Source of the DNA: Dehalococcoidia bacterium
Lineage (GTDB): Bacteria; Chloroflexota; Dehalococcoidia; SpSt-223
NCBI GenBank assembly: GCA_026003895.1
Contig: BPIC01000003.1
Location: 175,148 to 239,147, forward strand
Direction of reading: 5' to 3'
Length of the DNA: 64,000 nt
Below, piece after piece: positions 4,095 through 15,250 of the stretch. The notes under the pieces are model-generated. The model saw nothing but the letters and a program-made list of their open reading frames with translations. It was not told the DNA's origin and ran no database searches. The position numbers and the translations under genes were made by a program. The number at the start of each line of letters is the position of its first letter. Positions within the stretch are counted from its first letter, which is position 1.

Positions 4095-5808
4095 ATGCGT
4101 CATTGGTTGCGTCTCTTGCCGATCCTCCTGCTTGCCCTTCCGCTTGCTGGTCTGCCGCAGCCCAGTGCCCAAGCGCAAGCGCCGCTCGACTACCCCATCC
4201 CAGGGGGGCATTTCTACACCCAGGCCGATGGCACGGCCGGCGCCAGCGGACTCGGCTTTGCGGTGAGCGACGCCGACGGCATTCCCTTCCTCACCTATTA
4301 CACCCAGACGGGCGGCCCAAACGAGTGGGGCTACCCGGTGAGCCACCGCTTCATCTACCAAGGGTTCACCGTCCAGATCTTCCAGAAGGCTGGCTTTCAG
4401 TGGAACCCCGCGGCCGGCGGCGTTGCCTTCCTGAACATCTTCGATATCCTCCACGATGAAGGCTACGACGCGCAGCTTCAGCAGCAATACAGTGTTCCGC
4501 CGCCGGCCGCTTGGCCGCAGGACGCCGGCCAGCCGTTCTCTGTCGTTCAACAGAATCACCTCGCGGTGCTGAGCGCCAACCCGGCGATCCAGCAAGCCTT
4601 TCTCTCGAACCCGAACTGGCTGAACATCAATGGCCTGCCAATGGCGCCGATCGCCACCTACGGCAATGTCGCGGTCCTACGCGCCCAACGCTCCGTCTAC
4701 CAGCAGTGGCTGCAAGCCGTGCCATGGGCGGCGGCCGGCCAAGTGACGGTCGCCAACGGCGGCGACGTCGCTAAATCGCTTGGCCTGTGGCCGTCGTGGG
4801 CGGTGACCCCGCTTGCCGCGCAGCAAGCGCCGCTCTCAGCGATGACCGGGCCACTTGGTCCTCAGCCGACCGCCACGCCCAACCTCGCGGTGTGCAACGG
4901 CGATGAGCGGATCTCGTTCAACCCCGCCAACCCCAACCCGGGCCAGCAGGTTTCCATCCAAGTTACCTCGGCGCGCGCCTCGACCAATGTCAACCTTGTC
5001 GGACCGAATAACCCGGTCTTCCAAGGCGCTGGCGCGGGTGGACTCGGCACAGTGTGGAACTGGACGGTAACTGCCGGTCAGCCGGGCTCCTACGAATACG
5101 ACTTCTACATTGGGAGCACCCCCTGCGTGCGGGGCTTCTTGAACGTCGGCAGCGCCCCCGCGCCAACCGCGACGCCGACCGCCTGCAACGGCGATGAGGT
5201 GATGACCTTCAACCCACCGAACCCGAATGTGGGCCAGCAGTTCAGCATCGAAGTGACCTCGGCCCGCGCCTCGACCAACGTTGGCTTGAATGGCCCCTTC
5301 AACCCGAGTTTTGCTGGGGCAGCCGGCGGCGGACGCGGGACGATCTGGACGTGGAACGCCGTCCCGAACCAGCCGGGCTCTTTCACCTACACGTTCACGA
5401 TCAACGGGGGTGACCTGCGCGACTGGCACGATCGGCGTCAATCAGCCGGCCGTGCCAACCAATACACCAGTTCCACCGCCGCCCCAGGCGTGCACCGGCC
5501 AAGAGCGAATGAACTTCTTCCCGAACCCCGCCCAAGTTGGGCAGCCGGTGACGGTGAACGTCTCGAACGCCGCTCGCGGCATCACGCCGCAACTATCTGG
5601 CCCGTTCAACCCGGTCTACGAAGGGCCCGGGCCGGGCGGTACGGACTATTCGTGGCGGCTGACGCCGACCAACCCCGGGCAGGGCATCCAGTTCCGCTAC
5701 GTCGTGAACGAGATCCCCTGCACCACTGGCTTTCTCAATGTGAGCGGTCCCCCACCGAGCGCCCCCACGCCGACTCCTGATCCCGGCGGGCAGGGAATCG
5801 GCCGCTAG
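4095..5808 (+). CDS. secreted protein with three tandem ~97-aa Cys-pair repeats; as assembled, broken by a +1 frameshift at G5 run 5406-5410
   Basis: Signal peptide MRHWLRLLPILLLALPLAGLPQPSAQA. Repeats 1 and 2 are in the frame of ORF 4095..5780. Repeat 3 (QACTGQERMNFFPNP...CTTGFLNVSG) continues in the frame of ORF 5290..5808. Removing one G gives ...FTINGVTCATGTIGVNQ.... The N-terminal domain shares a GG..(W/F)G.P(V/L)(S/T)...VQ.FQ(K/R)A module with the 59201 protein. Confidence 0.7.
4875..5748 (+). repeat. three tandem in-gene repeats (period ~291-307 nt) encoding Ig-like modules
   Basis: The unit C(N/T)G(D/Q)E...F(N/F)P.NP..GQ...(I/V).V(T/S)(S/N)A...GP(N/F)NP.(F/Y).G...GG......W......PG...(Y/F).(F/Y)....C..GF(L)NV occurs three times. 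The first Cys codons are at 4893, 5184 and 5491. Confidence 0.75.
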
Positions 5809-5832
5809 CGCCGGGGCACGAGCGCACGCCTT

Positions 5833-5858
5833 CCCCCTTCTCCTGCAGGAGAAGGGGG
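5833..5858. terminator. bidirectional terminator hairpin between convergent genes
   Basis: Perfect 11-bp stem CCCCCTTCTCC / GGAGAAGGGGG with loop TGCA, lying between stop 5808 (+) and stop 5867 (-). There is no long T-tract. Confidence 0.55.
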
Positions 5859-5866
5859 ATATGTGT

Positions 5867-6460
5867 TTAGCGGCGTGGTGTCAAAACACGAGCGCGGTCG
5901 GCGGCGGAGAGCCTCGGAACGAGTGTGATGCCGGTCCGCTCGACGATGTCGAGCTTGTCGATGTCGGGGCCGTGCGCCTCGCCGCGTATCTTCTGGTCCG
6001 GCTGAAGGCTGCGCGTGGTCTCATGACGCAGGATGACGACGACGTTCGTCCGATCCACCAACGCAAACGGGAACTCGTGCCACGTTCCCAGCTTCATGGT
6101 GAAGCCCGCCGACCCGTCGAAGAGGAAGGCCCGCACCAATTCGAGATCCGGCGCCTCGGCGTCGTTGGGCGGCGCAAGAACGACCAGCATCGGCTTTCCG
6201 TCCAGCGGAATGAACGTCTGCGTGTGCTTGTAGTGGCGCTCCATGAAGCGCACCGTGAGCGGTCGGCGGTCGATCGCGGAGACGACGAGTTCGGTGTCTT
6301 CATCGGAACGAAACTGCACCGGGGCGTAGGTGCGGACCGCGCCATCATAGAAGGCGCTTGGTGTTCCGCTCGCCGGCGGCCCTGCCCCGAGAATTTCGCC
6401 GAAGGGAGCGACGCGCTCCGGCGTCGCCAGCTCAACCGGAATCTCGCGGACCGTCGCCAT
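5867..6460 (-). CDS. ureidoglycolate lyase (AllA) family protein
   Basis: FMERHYKHTQTFIPLDGKPMLVVLA...LVRAFLFDGSAGFTMKLGTWHEFPFAL aligns by eye with E. coli AllA [25 protein letters not shown]...[25 protein letters not shown]. Confidence 0.8.
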   Translation of the reverse strand: MATVREIPVELATPERVAPFGEILGAGPPASGTPSAFYDGAVRTYAPVQFRSDEDTELVVSAIDRRPLTVRFMERHYKHTQTFIPLDGKPMLVVLAPPNDAEAPDLELVRAFLFDGSAGFTMKLGTWHEFPFALVDRTNVVVILRHETTRSLQPDQKIRGEAHGPDIDKLDIVERTGITLVPRLSAADRARVLTPRR

Positions 6461-11211: not shown

Positions 11212-12723
11212 TCAAAGAAACGGAGACGGTTGTCGGGGGTACCAGCGGTAGCCTTCCAGATCGCGATGGTGAGCGACATAGAAGCGCGACCAGCAGATTG
11301 GGATGACCGCCGCGTCGGCGTTCAGGATCGCTTGGGCACGGCGGACCGCCTCCTCCCAGCCCTCGCCCGCTTCGGCAATGCCACGCAGCGCGTCGTAGAG
11401 CGCCGGGTTATCGTAGGCGTAACGGACAAGCCGCATCCGACCGGGGCCAAAGTCGTGCATGATGGCGTAGATCGGGTCATAGACGCGATGGCCGCGCCCC
11501 GCCCCGGCTCGGAGCATCAGTGGCGCGAGGTTCGCCTTCGCCATCCCCACGAGGTCCGGTCGGCCACGCGACTGGCCGACGTCGATCGTCACCTCGATCC
11601 CAATCCGCGCCAACCCATCGGCGATCACCCGCGCCGCCACCTCGGCGCCGTCGCCGGCCTGCGCCACCAGCCTTGTCCGGATCGGGCCGACGCCGGCCTC
11701 GTCCAGCAGTCGCTTGGCACGATCAAGGTCCTCGTCGAACGGCCATTCGGCGGGGGCGTAGCCCGGGTTCTCGGGCTGCAGCCAGCTCTTCCAGCGCCGC
11801 GTAGCGCCGAGATAAGCCGTGGCGATCACCTCCTGATACGGGATGGCATGAGCCACGGCACGGCGGACGAGCACCTTGTCGAAAGGCGGTTCGGTCACAT
11901 CGAGATGCAGCGCTACACCGGGCGGGGTATCAGCGGGCGCAATCCGAAGCGACCGATCGGAGCGGAGCGCCACCGCCTCGTCGAGCGTCAGCCCAAGGAC
12001 GAGGTCGACCTCGCCACGACGCAGGGCGTCGATGGTTTCTCCGCGTTCACGAAAACAGCGAAGGCGCGCCTCGGGAATTGCCGCCGGTCCACGCCAATAG
12101 CCCTCCACGGCGCGGAGCACCAGTTCGTCCTCGGCGCGGCCGGCGAGCGTGTAGGGCCCGAAACCAGCGGGCCGCTCGGCGAGGAAGCCCTTTGCCCACG
12201 GGTCGGCCACGGTGCAGTGCGGCAAAACGGCGGCTGTGTCGTAGACGGAAGGCGTGCACTGTGCCATCGCCGCGGGCAGGGCCGGATTCGGGGCTTCGAG
12301 GTGAAACGCGATCGTCAGCCGGTCGAGCACTTCGATCGCTCGCTCGTCGGGGACCGACGAGACGCGCGCTACCCATTTGCCGACGTCGCGCAGCGCGAAG
12401 GCGCGCTCCCAGCCCCAGCGGACGTCTTCGGCAGTGAGCAGGTTGCCGGCGGCGCTCCGCACCCCATCGCGCAACCGAACGATCCACGTTCGCCGGTCGT
12501 CGCTCCACCACCACGCCTCGGCTAAGTCCGCGCGGAGCTGATGCCAGTCGACGCGCCGGACACCGTCCTCTCCGATCGTGCCACGCGGCGAGGTCAACTG
12601 GTCGTACATGTTCTGGAAGAGGTCGGCGCCGAGGTCATTGCGGAAGCCGGCCGGCTGCTCCATGTCGAAATTGGACGGGAGCGCCTCCACGCCGACCGTG
12701 ATGTGACGTCGCATAGCCAGCAT
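11212..12723 (-). CDS. family-5 (peptide/nickel-type) substrate-binding-protein homolog without a signal peptide
   Basis: SBP_bac_5-like over its whole length (WSDDRRTWIVRLRDGVRSAAGNLLTAEDVRWGWERA..., ...PALYDALR..., ...ICWSRFYVAHHRDLEGYRW). The likely start is ATG 12723 or 12714 (MLAMRRHITVGVE), and neither gives a hydrophobic leader. The gene is 6 nt upstream of the FAD oxidoreductase. Confidence 0.7.
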   Translation of the reverse strand: MLAMRRHITVGVEALPSNFDMEQPAGFRNDLGADLFQNMYDQLTSPRGTIGEDGVRRVDWHQLRADLAEAWWWSDDRRTWIVRLRDGVRSAAGNLLTAEDVRWGWERAFALRDVGKWVARVSSVPDERAIEVLDRLTIAFHLEAPNPALPAAMAQCTPSVYDTAAVLPHCTVADPWAKGFLAERPAGFGPYTLAGRAEDELVLRAVEGYWRGPAAIPEARLRCFRERGETIDALRRGEVDLVLGLTLDEAVALRSDRSLRIAPADTPPGVALHLDVTEPPFDKVLVRRAVAHAIPYQEVIATAYLGATRRWKSWLQPENPGYAPAEWPFDEDLDRAKRLLDEAGVGPIRTRLVAQAGDGAEVAARVIADGLARIGIEVTIDVGQSRGRPDLVGMAKANLAPLMLRAGAGRGHRVYDPIYAIMHDFGPGRMRLVRYAYDNPALYDALRGIAEAGEGWEEAVRRAQAILNADAAVIPICWSRFYVAHHRDLEGYRWYPRQPSPFL

Positions 12724-12857
12724 CCTGCCGGAACCCCGTTCCCCTGTCAAGCGAGGCCTGCGGTCGTCGAGGGCCTCTCGTGCCGCACCGCCCAAACCTT
12801 GTGTCGAACACGCCAAATCGCGTAGTAGAGAAACCAACGTTGGGATGTAGGAGCCTC

Positions 12858-13400
12858 ATGATTCGCCAAGAAGTAATCGCCTGCGACGACCAAGGACGGC
12901 CAACCGGAGCGTATGTGGACCGCGTCGAGGCGCACCGCGGCGCAGGACAGCGGCATCTTGCGATCGTCGTCCTGCTGCTTGATCCACGGGGGCGGGCGCT
13001 GTTGCAACGGCGTAAACACCCGCTCTTTGACGGCTTGTGGGACCTGACCGGGGCGACCCACCCGCTGCGTCGCCCCGGCGGACCGGACGAAACCCTCGAG
13101 GAGGCAGCCGAGCGTTGCCTCGACCAGGAATACGCCGTGACCGGTCGGGTCGACGATCTGCGCCCGATCGGCGGGTTTGCCTACTTCGCGCCGGATGGCG
13201 AGCACTGCGAGAACGAGTATTGCTATGTCGTCGCCGGCCGGCTCGTCGGGACGATCGCGGCCAAGGAGGCGGCAGCATACGAGATGCGCTGGCTGCCGCT
13301 CGCCGAGCTGCAGCACGAGCTGGACGCGGCCTCGGGAGCGTTCACGCCGTGGGCGATTGCGAGCAAGAGGATCATCGCCGGCCTCGCGGCGACCTCTTGA
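12858..13400 (+). CDS. isopentenyl-diphosphate isomerase (type 1)-like NUDIX-fold protein
   Basis: ATG 12858 follows GTAGGAG. Matches to E. coli Idi blocks: AHRGAGQRHLAIVV matches AHTADTRLHLAFSS, ENEYCYVV matches ENEVCPVF, and FTPWAI matches FSPWMV. The Idi catalytic Cys (SVCGHP) aligns to GATHP here. Confidence 0.65.
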   Translation: MIRQEVIACDDQGRPTGAYVDRVEAHRGAGQRHLAIVVLLLDPRGRALLQRRKHPLFDGLWDLTGATHPLRRPGGPDETLEEAAERCLDQEYAVTGRVDDLRPIGGFAYFAPDGEHCENEYCYVVAGRLVGTIAAKEAAAYEMRWLPLAELQHELDAASGAFTPWAIASKRIIAGLAATS

Positions 13401-13425
13401 CAAACGCCGTCAGGAGGAGTAGTCT
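13397..13425 (+). promoter_or_regulatory. sigma70-like promoter (TTGACA-17-TAGTCT)
   Basis: TTGACA at 13397-13402 overlaps the stop of the preceding gene. A 17-nt spacer follows, then TAGTCT at 13420-13425. The predicted TSS is near 13432. Confidence 0.4.
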
Positions 13426-13488
13426 GGTGCTGTAAGGTACAGGCGTTCCTCGGAGCGCCGAGTATCGACCGGCAAGGAGGCTCAGGTG

Positions 13489-13545
13489 ATGATGCCTCGC
13501 AAGACTCCGCTCTCGTTCTTCGGGAGATTTCAAGTCGACAGGTAA
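13489..13545 (+). CDS. 18-codon small ORF (MMPRKTPLSFFGRFQVDR) inside the candidate RNA
   Basis: AAGGAGG at 13474-13480 lies 5 nt before GTG 13486 and 8 nt before ATG 13489. The TAA at 13543-13545 is immediately followed by a long hairpin. Confidence 0.3.
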   Translation: MMPRKTPLSFFGRFQVDR

Positions 13546-13715
13546 CGCCCTACGCCACGGTGGTGTAGGGCGGTAGCCGGGAGCCCGCTTCGGGGGCGAC
13601 ACCGCAGCCGGCAGTCTCAATCGTCTTACGTGACGACCTTGCTGAGACGCCAAGCCGCCTCAGGCCCCGCGGTCAACGGGCTTTCGAAGCGGGATTTTGG
13701 AACCACGGATCGTTC

Positions 13716-13746
13716 GGGCGGCGCACTTGCGCCGCCCTTTCGTTTG
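13716..13746 (+). terminator. intrinsic terminator
   Basis: Perfect 9-bp GC stem GGGCGGCGC / GCGCCGCCC with loop ACTT, followed by TTTCGTTTG. Confidence 0.7.
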
Positions 13747-13753
13747 CCGCGCG

Positions 13754-13783
13754 TTGACGCTCTCCGCGGACCGCTCGTAGGAT
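13754..13783 (+). promoter_or_regulatory. sigma70-like promoter for npdG (TTGACG-18-TAGGAT)
   Basis: The hexamers and spacing sit directly after the terminator and about 30 nt before the GGAGACGGAG SD sequence of the 13812 gene. Confidence 0.4.
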
Positions 13784-13811
13784 CTCCCCACTTTTGGCCG
13801 GGAGACGGAGC

Positions 13812-14495
13812 ATGGCAGGTGCGCGGACGATTGCGGTGTTGGGCGGTACGGGCGATCAAGGCTACGGGCTGGCATTGCGCTGGGTGAAGGCGGGGGAGCA
13901 CGTTCTGATCGGCTCGCGCGTTGCTGAGCGCGCCGAGGAGGCGGCCCGCAACATCCGCGAGGCACTCGGCGGCCAAGGCACGATCGAGGGCCGCGAGAAC
14001 CCTGCCGCCGTCGCCGAGGCCGACATCGTCGTCGTTTCGGTGCCCTTTTCGGCGCAGGCCACGACGCTCAAGACCTGCCGTGATTCATTCCGCGAGGGAC
14101 AGATCCTGTGCGACCTCACCGTCGCCCTCGCGAGCAATATCGGCGGCCCCGCGACCCGCATGATCATTCCGCCGCAGGGTTCCGCTGCCGAGCAGGCAGC
14201 CGATTTGGTTCCGAAAGGCGTGAAAGTCGTCTCCGCGTTCCAAAATGTCTCCGCGGAAGCGCTTGCCAATCTCGACGAAGAGATCGAGTGCGATGTGATT
14301 GTCTGCGGCGCGAACGATGCCAAACCAGTGATTCGCGACCTCATTCACCACCTGCCCGGCGCCCGCTACGTCGACGGCGGGCCGCTTTACAACTCGCGCA
14401 TCGTCGAGTCGATCACTGCGCTGCTGATCGGCTTCAACATCCGCTATAAGGTGCCGCACAGCGGTATCCGCATCACTGGCATCCCGGCAGCGTAG
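13812..14495 (+). CDS. npdG: NADPH-dependent F420 reductase (F420H2:NADP+ oxidoreductase)
   Basis: MAGARTIAVLGGTGDQGYGLALRW Rossmann start, with ...VVVSVPF...AEQAA...VKVVSAFQNV...CDVIVCGAND..., typical of NpdG/Fno. The ATG follows GGAGACGGAG. Confidence 0.85.
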   Translation: MAGARTIAVLGGTGDQGYGLALRWVKAGEHVLIGSRVAERAEEAARNIREALGGQGTIEGRENPAAVAEADIVVVSVPFSAQATTLKTCRDSFREGQILCDLTVALASNIGGPATRMIIPPQGSAAEQAADLVPKGVKVVSAFQNVSAEALANLDEEIECDVIVCGANDAKPVIRDLIHHLPGARYVDGGPLYNSRIVESITALLIGFNIRYKVPHSGIRITGIPAA

Positions 14496-14665
14496 GGCGC
14501 ACCCGCGCCACGGGTCACCTGCTGTCCAAACGCATTACGGAGACGGGAACGCGCTGCATTCCTGAGGGGATCCGGATGCGTGTGCTCCCCACAGGCCGGG
14601 ACGCTCCGGCGTCGCTCTCCGGGGAGTGGTACGATCGCCGAAGCCGGCAGGGGAAGGGGGCAAGG

Positions 14666-15250
14666 GTGAGCAAGATCGGCCGCGCGATCACCAGCTATCT
14701 CGAACGGCAGGGGTGGGACGTCGAGCAGGACGGAGACGAGGAGATTTTCACCTTCGCGTGGCAGGGAGTCGGGCAGCAATATCACACCATCATCTCGGTC
14801 ACGCCCTTTGGCGAGCCGGCGATGTATGCCATCATGATTCGCTCGATGCTCCCGGTCGAAGCATCCAAGGCGCATGTCCCCAAGCTGCTCGACCTGATGA
14901 ACCGCATCAACGTTGCCTTTCCCTACGGGAATTTCGTCCTCGACACGATCAGCGAGAGCTATGCCCTAATGGCTGAGACCCAGTTGTTTCTACCAAATGA
15001 TTCGCTCAACCAGCCGCTCTTCGAACAGGTGCTTGACGCGTCGATGGAGATGGCAGAGTTTTATCAGCCCGCTTTCGACGGTGTCGTCACCAAGAAGATG
15101 ACGATCGATCAAGCGTTGGATCTCGTCCTGCAGGATGAGGCGCTCCTCGACGAGATCGAAGAGACAACAGCCAAGTCTGCCCCGCGAAACGCGCCCGACC
15201 GGCCGGAGCAGCCGGCGCCGCCGAAACGCGGCAAACGGGCGAACCGCTAG
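14666..15250 (+). CDS. YbjN-domain (putative sensory transduction / T3SS-chaperone-like) protein
   Basis: Starts at GTG after GGGGAAGGGGG. Sequence SKIGRAITSYLERQGWDVEQDGDEEIFTFAWQG...YAIMIRSMLPV...LLDLMNRINVAFPYGNFVLD is the YbjN pattern. The C-terminal tail is basic. Confidence 0.7.
   Translation: MSKIGRAITSYLERQGWDVEQDGDEEIFTFAWQGVGQQYHTIISVTPFGEPAMYAIMIRSMLPVEASKAHVPKLLDLMNRINVAFPYGNFVLDTISESYALMAETQLFLPNDSLNQPLFEQVLDASMEMAEFYQPAFDGVVTKKMTIDQALDLVLQDEALLDEIEETTAKSAPRNAPDRPEQPAPPKRGKRANR

Follow-up and report, generated by a model that had tools for sequence, protein, structure and literature searches.

A candidate micropeptide gene with a structured mRNA upstream of npdG in an uncultured Dehalococcoidia clade

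Introduction

In a 64,000-nt stretch of DNA from a Dehalococcoidia bacterium (assembly GCA_026003895.1, contig BPIC01000003.1; here called the window), an idi-like NUDIX gene is followed by npdG, whose product is the F420H2:NADP+ oxidoreductase Fno. The open reading frame (ORF) of the NUDIX gene ends at position 13400 and the ATG of npdG is at 13812, leaving a gap of 411 nt. What does this gap encode? A first-pass annotation made from the sequence alone suggested that it is a self-contained transcription unit carrying an 18-codon ORF, and offered three possible functions: a dual-function small RNA (sRNA), a micropeptide gene, or a leader peptide or attenuator that controls npdG by read-through. 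The comparison with relatives presented here points to the second of these. We consider it probable that the unit is an independent small gene, with a structured mRNA and a free 18-residue peptide as its product, and its best reading would be as a new, lineage-restricted micropeptide gene of a small uncultured clade. To our knowledge, annotation pipelines all miss genes for peptides of fewer than 30 residues; we know of very few such micropeptide genes outside model bacteria and of none in Dehalococcoidia, and of little work on the regulation of F420 reduction in bacteria.

Comparative evidence for translation

Ten copies of the unit were compared: those of the window, of G001 and G002, and of the contigs L040, L065, L069, L070 (two copies, L070_1 and L070_2), L071 and L072. 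G001, G002 and a third genome, G003, are congeners, one congener of the window lineage being the metagenome-assembled genome STL-CHL33; L066-68 are duplicates of L065. The ten copies represent about seven effective lineages (at least seven), all of them uncultured, and in none of the source records is the copy called as a gene. That it recurs as a unit in so many copies goes well beyond chance.

The ribosome-binding site, start codons and ORF are where the first-pass annotation had put them. A Shine-Dalgarno (SD) sequence, AAGGAGG (13474-13480), precedes GTG-ATG-ATG, with the GTG at 13486 and the two ATG codons at 13489 and 13492, and the ORF occupies 13489 to 13545 on the + strand, as 18 codons and a TAA (13543-13545). 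Its predicted product is MMPRKTPLSFFGRFQVDR, to which initiation at the in-frame GTG could add one Met. The corresponding peptides are MMMPRKTPLSFFGRFQVDR in L071 and L065 (stop codon TAG), MMTPRKTPLSVFGRFQVDR in G001 and L040 (TAA), MMPRKTPLSALRRFQVDR in G002 (TAA), MLVPRKTPLSVLRRFQVDS in L069 (TAG), MFPRSKRMAVLRRFQIDR in L070_1 (TGA) and MFPRKKPLVGLERLQVDG in L072 (TAG). In L070_2 the peptide MLQAPRKMTMAMLRRFQVDR is followed by TCA and 16 further codons in frame, with no stop at this position. Across the ten copies the predicted product has 18-20 residues and follows the consensus M-x(1-3)-PRK-x-P-L-x-x-(L/F)-x-R-(F/L)-Q-(V/I)-D-x.

The pattern of change among these copies is that of a coding sequence. 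Nucleotide identity is highest in the ORF, at 82-88% vs 52-62% in other parts of the unit. Insertions and deletions within it are of whole codons only and lie near the N-terminus, and the position of the stop is fixed while its identity varies (TAA in four copies, TAG in four, TGA in one, with TCA in L070_2). Within the genus clade plus L069, the proportion of synonymous sites that differ (pS) is 0.24-0.68 and that of nonsynonymous sites (pN) is 0-0.11, these being values from a small sample of 16 aligned codons; for G002 and L069 they are 0.67 and 0.06, and for the most distant pairs 0.6-0.75 and 0.23-0.36. One Arg is kept through a first-position change from AGA to CGA, for which selection on the amino acid is the only explanation. 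An SD sequence and an ATG are found in all ten copies, 5-12 nt apart; of the five distinct SD arrangements four have a spacing of 5-9 nt, and where a genus copy starts at the first ATG the spacing is 12 nt. Neither strand has another conserved frame, and no longer ORF is conserved either. Read-through of the stop codon into the open downstream frame was considered and ruled out, as insertions and deletions in the relatives break that frame.

These comparisons indicate that the amino-acid sequence of the ORF is under purifying selection, and translation of the ORF is well supported by comparative evidence. The micropeptide gene proposed at first pass thus finds strong support in the substitution pattern. 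The peptide is basic and has no hydrophobic transmembrane stretch, and from its sequence the C-terminal half is probably an amphipathic helix that follows a PRK-x-P turn. A Phe-Phe pair is confined to the copies of the window, L071 and L065, and there is no conserved run of codons for any one amino acid.

Promoters and terminator

That the gap is a transcription unit in its own right is borne out: its promoter, its terminator and a separate promoter for npdG keep their positions in all lineages, and in G002 the whole unit has been relocated. The promoter of the unit (promoter P1) lies at 13397-13425 on the + strand and was read from the sequence as the first-pass annotation had it, with TTGACA at 13397-13402, a 17-nt spacer and TAGTCT at 13420-13425. 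It was missed by a generic promoter scan because TAGTCT scores only 3/6 against TATAAT. All nine independent units nevertheless have TTGAC(A/T), a 17-18-nt spacer and TAnnnT, located 52-63 nt 5' of the start codon; TTGACA-17-TAnnnT is counted in eight of the nine, and the deviations are the 18-nt spacer of L070 and the TTGACT of L072. The stop codon of the NUDIX gene (TGA, 13398-13400) falls inside the -35 hexamer of promoter P1, with the same overlap in L065 and L071, so that the NUDIX gene and the micro-ORF gene are packed with zero spacing.

At the other end, the terminator scan recovered the intrinsic terminator at 13716-13746 on the + strand, a 9-bp all-GC hairpin (GGGCGGCGC-ACUU-GCGCCGCCC) followed by the T-rich tail UUUCGUUUG, again in agreement with the first-pass annotation. 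Each of the nine independent units has a GC stem of 9-12 bp with a T tail, 159-171 nt downstream of the stop codon, and among the three congeners the stem shows compensatory changes (RNAalifold).

The promoter attributed to npdG (promoter P2; TTGACG, 18-nt spacer, TAGGAT, + strand) was found by the promoter scan at 13754-13783, where it is the only promoter-like match in 12500-14800, with 0.1 expected. Every npdG-linked copy has TTGACG-18-TAnnn(T/A) at 200-215 nt 3' of the micro-ORF stop, and in G002 a degenerate P2 (TTGCCC-18-TAGGAT) stayed with npdG when the unit moved. The npdG promoter is unusual in its fixed 18-nt spacer and in the -35 variant TTGACG(C), seen in the window (13747-13790), L065, L071, L009, L069, L070 and L072, and in each case the T tail of the upstream terminator is no more than about 10-25 nt away. 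This tight packing of terminator and promoter may itself matter, through insulation or local coupling.

Distribution and association with npdG

Conservation in relatives, on which the earlier proposal depended, was found, at first by BLASTN, which matched the unit region in two of the three congeners at 71-75% identity. A scan of a metagenome collection for the hairpin pattern gave one true match, L040, the three others being due to chance. In its own 4.0-Mb assembly the unit is single-copy (by BLAST, by hairpin and 3'-block patterns, and by model R1, a covariance model that runs from the SD to the 3' domain). A repeat or mobile element of the REP or MITE type is ruled out by this occurrence of a single copy in the assembly.

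Wider searches found little. Model R1 had no match outside the genus in 400 Dehalococcoidia genomes, and model R2 (SD, ORF and hairpin, built from the ten copies) gave weak matches of 20-32 bits in 400 genomes, none with an RFQVD-like ORF. A profile of the peptide gave only noise over 400 Chloroflexota genomes, and a back-translated peptide pattern found nothing but G002 over all GTDB species. The productive route was to search for homologues of the npdG protein and then to inspect their contigs for an upstream unit. Every contig examined in which npdG reaches 70% identity has the unit in its upstream gap (L071, L065 and its duplicates L066-68, L069, L070 and L072); contigs with npdG at most 61% identical have neither gap nor unit. 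The unit is confined to one npdG clade.

Contig L070 (380-1110; GCA_025055955.1, JANWWD010000064.1) carries two tandem micro-ORF modules before npdG, with one promoter and no terminator between them. L070_1 is intact, ending in TGA, and in L070_2, which has TCA at the stop position, the frame continues for 16 codons through its own hairpin. This makes L070_2 a duplicate in decay or else a longer variant.

The unit occurs in all eight lineages of the npdG clade examined (at least 70% identity), and in seven of them directly upstream of npdG. The gene on its other side is of four kinds, namely a NUDIX gene, a divergent FAD oxidase, an alpha/beta hydrolase and an unidentified gene, and the gene after npdG likewise differs between lineages. 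In the remaining lineage, G002, the unit lies away from npdG, complete from promoter P1 through the terminator (L010/L038, JAXLWW010000021.1, about 5630-5935, minus strand), with a 2-oxoacid dehydrogenase E2 gene roughly 60 nt downstream and, on the upstream side, a gene for a Tat-signal protein without a Pfam match; npdG of G002 is on another contig (L043:1081-1509), behind a 430-nt gap. This relocation makes the unit a separable gene. G003, of the same genus and 96% complete, has neither an Fno/npdG homologue (E <= 1e-10) nor the micro-ORF unit.

With so few lineages we would say cautiously that the synteny with npdG, the joint absence and the confinement to one npdG clade appear to exceed what simple inheritance of gene order would give. 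The persistent position upstream of npdG keeps alive a looser functional link.

Translational control and the possibility of a cis-acting leader

Several features of the mRNA bear on how the ORF would be translated. The SD lies in a hairpin (13477-13498, + strand) in which GGAGG of the AAGGAGG at 13474-13480 pairs with CCUC in codons 3-4 (CCU CGC), the start codons being in the loop and the 3' arm; local folds have energies of -11 to -18 kcal/mol. This pairing between SD and anti-SD is found in eight of the ten folded copies, that is, the six of the genus clade, L070_1 and L072 (with CCCC in L072), and on alignment A8 82% of the cells of the hairpin are paired. The CCUC of L069 has an upstream GAGG as its partner instead of the start-proximal SD, and the minimum free energy (MFE) fold of L070_2 lacks the pairing of SD with CCUC.

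Rare codons are conserved along with this structure. Nine of ten copies have CCU for Pro (CCU makes up 6.9% of the genome's Pro codons), nine of ten have AGA as the Arg codon six before the stop (1.1% of Arg codons), and eight of ten have AGG or AGA as the last codon; tRNA-Arg(UCU) and tRNA-Arg(CCU) have one gene each. The string AGA-UUU-CAR-GUY-GAC-AGR (13525-13542), which contains SD-like GGAG and AGG, is almost frozen while other synonymous sites have turned over. Coding alone is insufficient to account for it.

The long hairpin reported to abut the stop codon is present at 13546-13572 on the + strand, with a 12-bp stem (CGCCCUACGCCA / UGGUGUAGGGCG). In nine of ten copies it is a gapless stem of 11-12 bp that starts 0-1 nt after the stop; in L070_2 it can be formed only with one bulged base (hand pairing of the alignment). 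Within the genus clade the stem is invariant and the loop variable, and in L069, L070 and L072 the stem is rebuilt with other bases, a G.U pair being kept throughout. Five of its 11 pairs are changed on both sides, and its covariation score was reached by none of 500 shuffles. A 5'-proximal stem-loop is predicted at 13436-13466 on the + strand (MFE fold; core GGCGUUC-CUCG-GAGCGCC, 13442-13459), with compensatory changes at pairs 16-19/32-35 among the three congeners (RNAalifold). A 5' hairpin of differing sequence appears in the folds of the window, L065, G001, L040, G002, L070_1 and L072, and is short or rearranged in L071 and L069.

Such features could also be those of a leader ORF acting in cis, in which the nascent chain, or the act of translation, sets the stability of the transcript or read-through into npdG; a pause or arrest at the rare AGA and AGG codons and at the hairpin by the stop, possibly responsive to a metabolite, would be the means. 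The unit stands upstream of npdG and is co-oriented with it in seven of eight lineages despite changing flanks, a peptide of 18-20 residues fits wholly within the exit tunnel and is conserved most strongly at the C-terminus by the stop, where the rare Arg codons are also conserved. With the hairpin only 0-1 nt beyond the stop, termination requires the ribosome to melt it. The tandem modules of L070, which precede npdG with no terminator between, fit as well, as does the unit of G002, about 60 nt from the next gene, where no TTGACG-18-TAnnnT promoter was found.

Against this, neither arm of the terminator has a conserved alternative partner, nor does the 3' arm that is freed when the post-stop hairpin opens. 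The terminator, at 159-171 nt from the stop, is too far away for classical ribosome-coupled attenuation, and is followed directly by npdG's own conserved promoter. A sequestered SD would be unusual for a leader that needs prompt translation, and the N-terminal PRK-x-P-L is conserved as well as the C-terminus. We therefore regard a cis-acting leader as unlikely, while taking it as a serious contender.

Particular forms of leader fare worse. Read-through into npdG under a leader peptide or attenuator, in its classical form, finds no support, as no pairing rivals the terminator and npdG has its own conserved promoter: once the 3' arm of the terminator is removed, the 5' arm is left unpaired or finds weak partners specific to a lineage. 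Ribosome-dependent refolding is likewise rejected, the downstream fold being unchanged after removal of the 5' arm of the post-stop hairpin, and so is a leader of the trp, his or phe type, given the lack of a conserved run of regulatory codons and the independent npdG promoter. Simple read-through control of npdG does not agree with a terminator that lies some 165 nt beyond the stop and is followed by a conserved promoter. A more specific proposal is that the micro-ORF is a sensory leader of a new class whose nascent peptide (PRK-x-P-L...R-F-Q-V-D-R), decoded by way of the rarest Arg codons up to the hairpin at the stop, stalls the ribosome in response to a small molecule of deazaflavin or NADPH-redox metabolism, and so sets the fate of the transcript and the level of Fno. 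The route to Fno would be read-through or local effects on the adjacent promoter. We think this quite improbable. The hints of nascent-peptide arrest of the TnaC, SecM or SpeFL type are indirect ones, namely the conserved C-terminus R-F-Q-V-D-R-stop, the rare AGA and AGG codons and the hairpin at the stop, and there is no similarity to any arrest motif known to us.

The 3' domain and the possibility of a dual-function RNA

The first-pass annotation also described about 170 nt of GC-rich stems after the post-stop hairpin. The stems are there, although their own stability is no better than that of shuffled sequence. The 322-nt transcript as a whole folds better than shuffles (z = -5.4 on the + strand and -3.9 on the - strand), which is due to the three perfect hairpins, and the 138 nt after the post-stop hairpin show no excess stability in nine of ten copies (z -1.7 to +0.9). 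What can be recognised here is a branched 3' domain (13576-13701, + strand; consensus fold of the six genus-clade copies), composed of stem P1 (CCCG...CGGGGG / CUUUCG...CGGG), stem P2 (CG + ACCGC / GCGGU + CG) and hairpins P3 and P4. Within the genus clade the junctions GGGGGCGACACCGCAG and ACGCGGUCAACG(A/G)GC are nearly invariant, as are stems P1 and P2; P3 is long, with a distal stem whose sequence is species-specific yet still pairs, and P4 is short. In the domain 89% of cells are paired vs 34-41% with slid partners, and four pairs are changed on both sides. With model R3, built from this domain only, the six genus-clade copies score 111-132 bits and L069 scores 13.9 bits (E 0.026) at the right place, with no match in L070 or L072. 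The domain, of about 125 nt, thus appears real at genus level, and fast-evolving, unlike a metabolite-binding aptamer.

No known RNA family is represented: cmscan against Rfam 15 gave no match at the gathering threshold in the whole window, and the first-pass annotation had seen no signature sequences of tmRNA, RNase P, SRP, TPP, cobalamin or T-box RNAs. At E values up to 10, the region 13300-13900 gave only noise of 10-17 bits, mostly at 13663-13807, where the terminator hairpin and the sequence 3' of it lie, with stray matches to ASpks (13434-13503, - strand) and L31-Actinobacteria (13340-13394). The unit is outside catalogued RNA and protein families, the peptide lying below the limits of 20-30 residues that apply to family and structure searches. 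A riboswitch is not supported, given the restriction of model R3 to the genus, the lack of an alternative platform, and the place of the domain, 3' of the ORF and followed by another promoter. Nothing relevant was found in the literature on an F420 riboswitch or on small proteins of Chloroflexi.

The domain raises the possibility of a dual-function RNA, in which the 3' domain of about 125 nt and the terminator, whole or processed, act in trans by base-pairing or by binding a protein. The common branched fold of the genus clade, with its near-invariant junctions and re-paired distal stem, is what this would lead us to expect, as are the bit scores of model R3 in that clade and the constant length of 159-171 nt from stop to terminator in all lineages; the post-stop hairpin could serve to mark a boundary for processing, or to protect it. 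Yet the domain, unlike the ORF, is unrecognisable in L070 and L072 and weak in L069, its folding energy does not exceed that of shuffles, and nothing similar occurs elsewhere in the 400 Dehalococcoidia genomes or in its own genome. No conserved single-stranded seed could be defined; target pairing was examined at the npdG leader only, where complementarity is within the range of shuffled controls (z -0.25 to +1.5) and the sites differ from lineage to lineage. A trans-acting role is thus rather unlikely.

A module of the type I toxin kind, that is, a tightly repressed mRNA for a harmful small peptide, is very improbable: the SD is sequestered, the mRNA has a compact fold with hairpins towards its 5' and 3' ends, and the peptide is very short and cationic, but it has no hydrophobic transmembrane stretch, the promoter and terminator scan of the minus strand found no sites for an antisense RNA, and the unit, present once and kept in synteny with a housekeeping redox gene, is neither patchy nor mobile. 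That the unit is a purely non-coding structured RNA with a fortuitous ORF is scarcely credible, since its GC-richness, its three strong hairpins and the freezing of some synonymous sites (AGA, CCU, GAC) are outweighed by variable sites that are codon-periodic and mostly synonymous, by whole-codon indels, by three different stop codons at one position, and by the retention of the SD and of Arg through the change from AGA to CGA.

A model for the unit

We return to the independent micropeptide gene. In the mechanism that we propose, the strong sigma-70-type promoter at 13397-13425 would give a transcript of about 320-330 nt, ending at the terminator (13716-13746). Its main product would be the basic 18-residue peptide, a member of a family of 18-20 residues with the pattern PRK-x-P-L...R-F-Q-V-D-R. 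Translation would be gated, in that the pairing of the SD with codons 3-4 (CCU CG) means that initiation needs the SD hairpin to open, and ribosomes would probably slow at the end of the ORF, where the rarest Arg codons (AGA and AGG) run into the 12-bp GC hairpin. Slowing there could serve to stabilise the mRNA or to sense some condition. The mRNA may owe its stability and shape to the 5' stem-loop and the post-stop hairpin, together with the terminator and a folded 3' region whose length is constant. The role of the peptide would be tied to Fno, because the place upstream of npdG is kept while the outer neighbours change and because both are absent from one congener; it would most likely be a small partner or modulator of Fno, or a co-regulated product.

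Some observations weigh against this reading. Both the ends of the transcript and the peptide itself are deduced from sequence, and the effective lineages are only about seven, all uncultured. The peptide is too short for family or structure comparison, and nothing points to what it binds; the link to Fno is drawn only from synteny and one joint absence. The frozen rare codons and the near-invariant CGG-AGA-UUU-CAR-GUC-GAC-AGG seem to show a constraint at the level of the RNA or of the decoding rate, and a regulatory ORF acting in cis therefore fits them as well as a free peptide does. Finally, L070_2, with TCA for its stop and a product of 36 residues, implies either that a free and exact C-terminus may not be essential or that this copy is decaying.

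The interest of a free micropeptide, if this is what the unit encodes, lies in the unusually clean comparative evidence for its translation. The sequestered SD, the frozen rare codons, the hairpin abutting the stop and the 3' region of fixed length together point to controlled translation.

Comparison with known systems

Three groups of known systems invite comparison, together with the mRNAs of type I toxins. The first is that of dual-function sRNAs that also encode small proteins, such as SgrS/SgrT, RNAIII/delta-haemolysin (hld), SR1/SR1P, Spot 42/SpfP and AzuCR/AzuC. Like these, the unit would be a stand-alone transcript of 200-500 nt with its own promoter and intrinsic terminator, and would carry an ORF of 15-45 codons whose SD lies in secondary structure, with both RNA and peptide conserved. 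Unlike them, it has no seed or target that we could find, its RNA outside the ORF is conserved in one genus-level clade only, and it has no sequence or Rfam relationship to any of them. For a trans-acting 3' domain, sRNAs derived from 3' untranslated regions are another analogue.

The second group comprises leader peptides, such as TnaC (24 residues, with arrest at the stop codon), MgtL (17 residues), the trpL and pheL attenuators, and the ermC leader, in which slowing of the ribosome leads to stabilisation of the mRNA. TnaC, MgtL and the ermC leader are the closest analogues of a leader acting in cis. The likeness is in a very short, co-oriented upstream ORF with a conserved C-terminus at the stop, a hairpin at the stop and a terminator before the gene. 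The differences are that the unit lacks a switch between terminator and antiterminator, that its terminator is about 165 nt away, that npdG has its own promoter, and that there is no run of codons. Were the sensory leader true, it would be the first known regulatory device for F420 metabolism, and a new arrest peptide. With the mRNAs of type I toxins (hok, tisB) the unit has in common the occlusion of the SD and a compact, highly paired mRNA; it differs from them in that its peptide is not hydrophobic, that there are no antisense signals, and that it is not patchy or mobile.

The third group is that of micropeptides that tune partner enzymes or transporters, namely CydX (cytochrome bd), KdpF (KdpABC), AzuC (GlpD), MgtS and AcrZ. 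Most peptides of the CydX and KdpF type are membrane peptides, whereas that of the unit would be soluble and basic, and the unit has its own promoter and terminator where theirs are cistrons of the partner's operon. The partnership with Fno is our suggestion from gene order and joint absence. What the unit shares with them is a product of fewer than 50 residues, likely a short amphipathic helix, and a gene beside that of the presumed partner, and its steady association with npdG gives a testable starting point for asking how bacteria tune F420 reduction.

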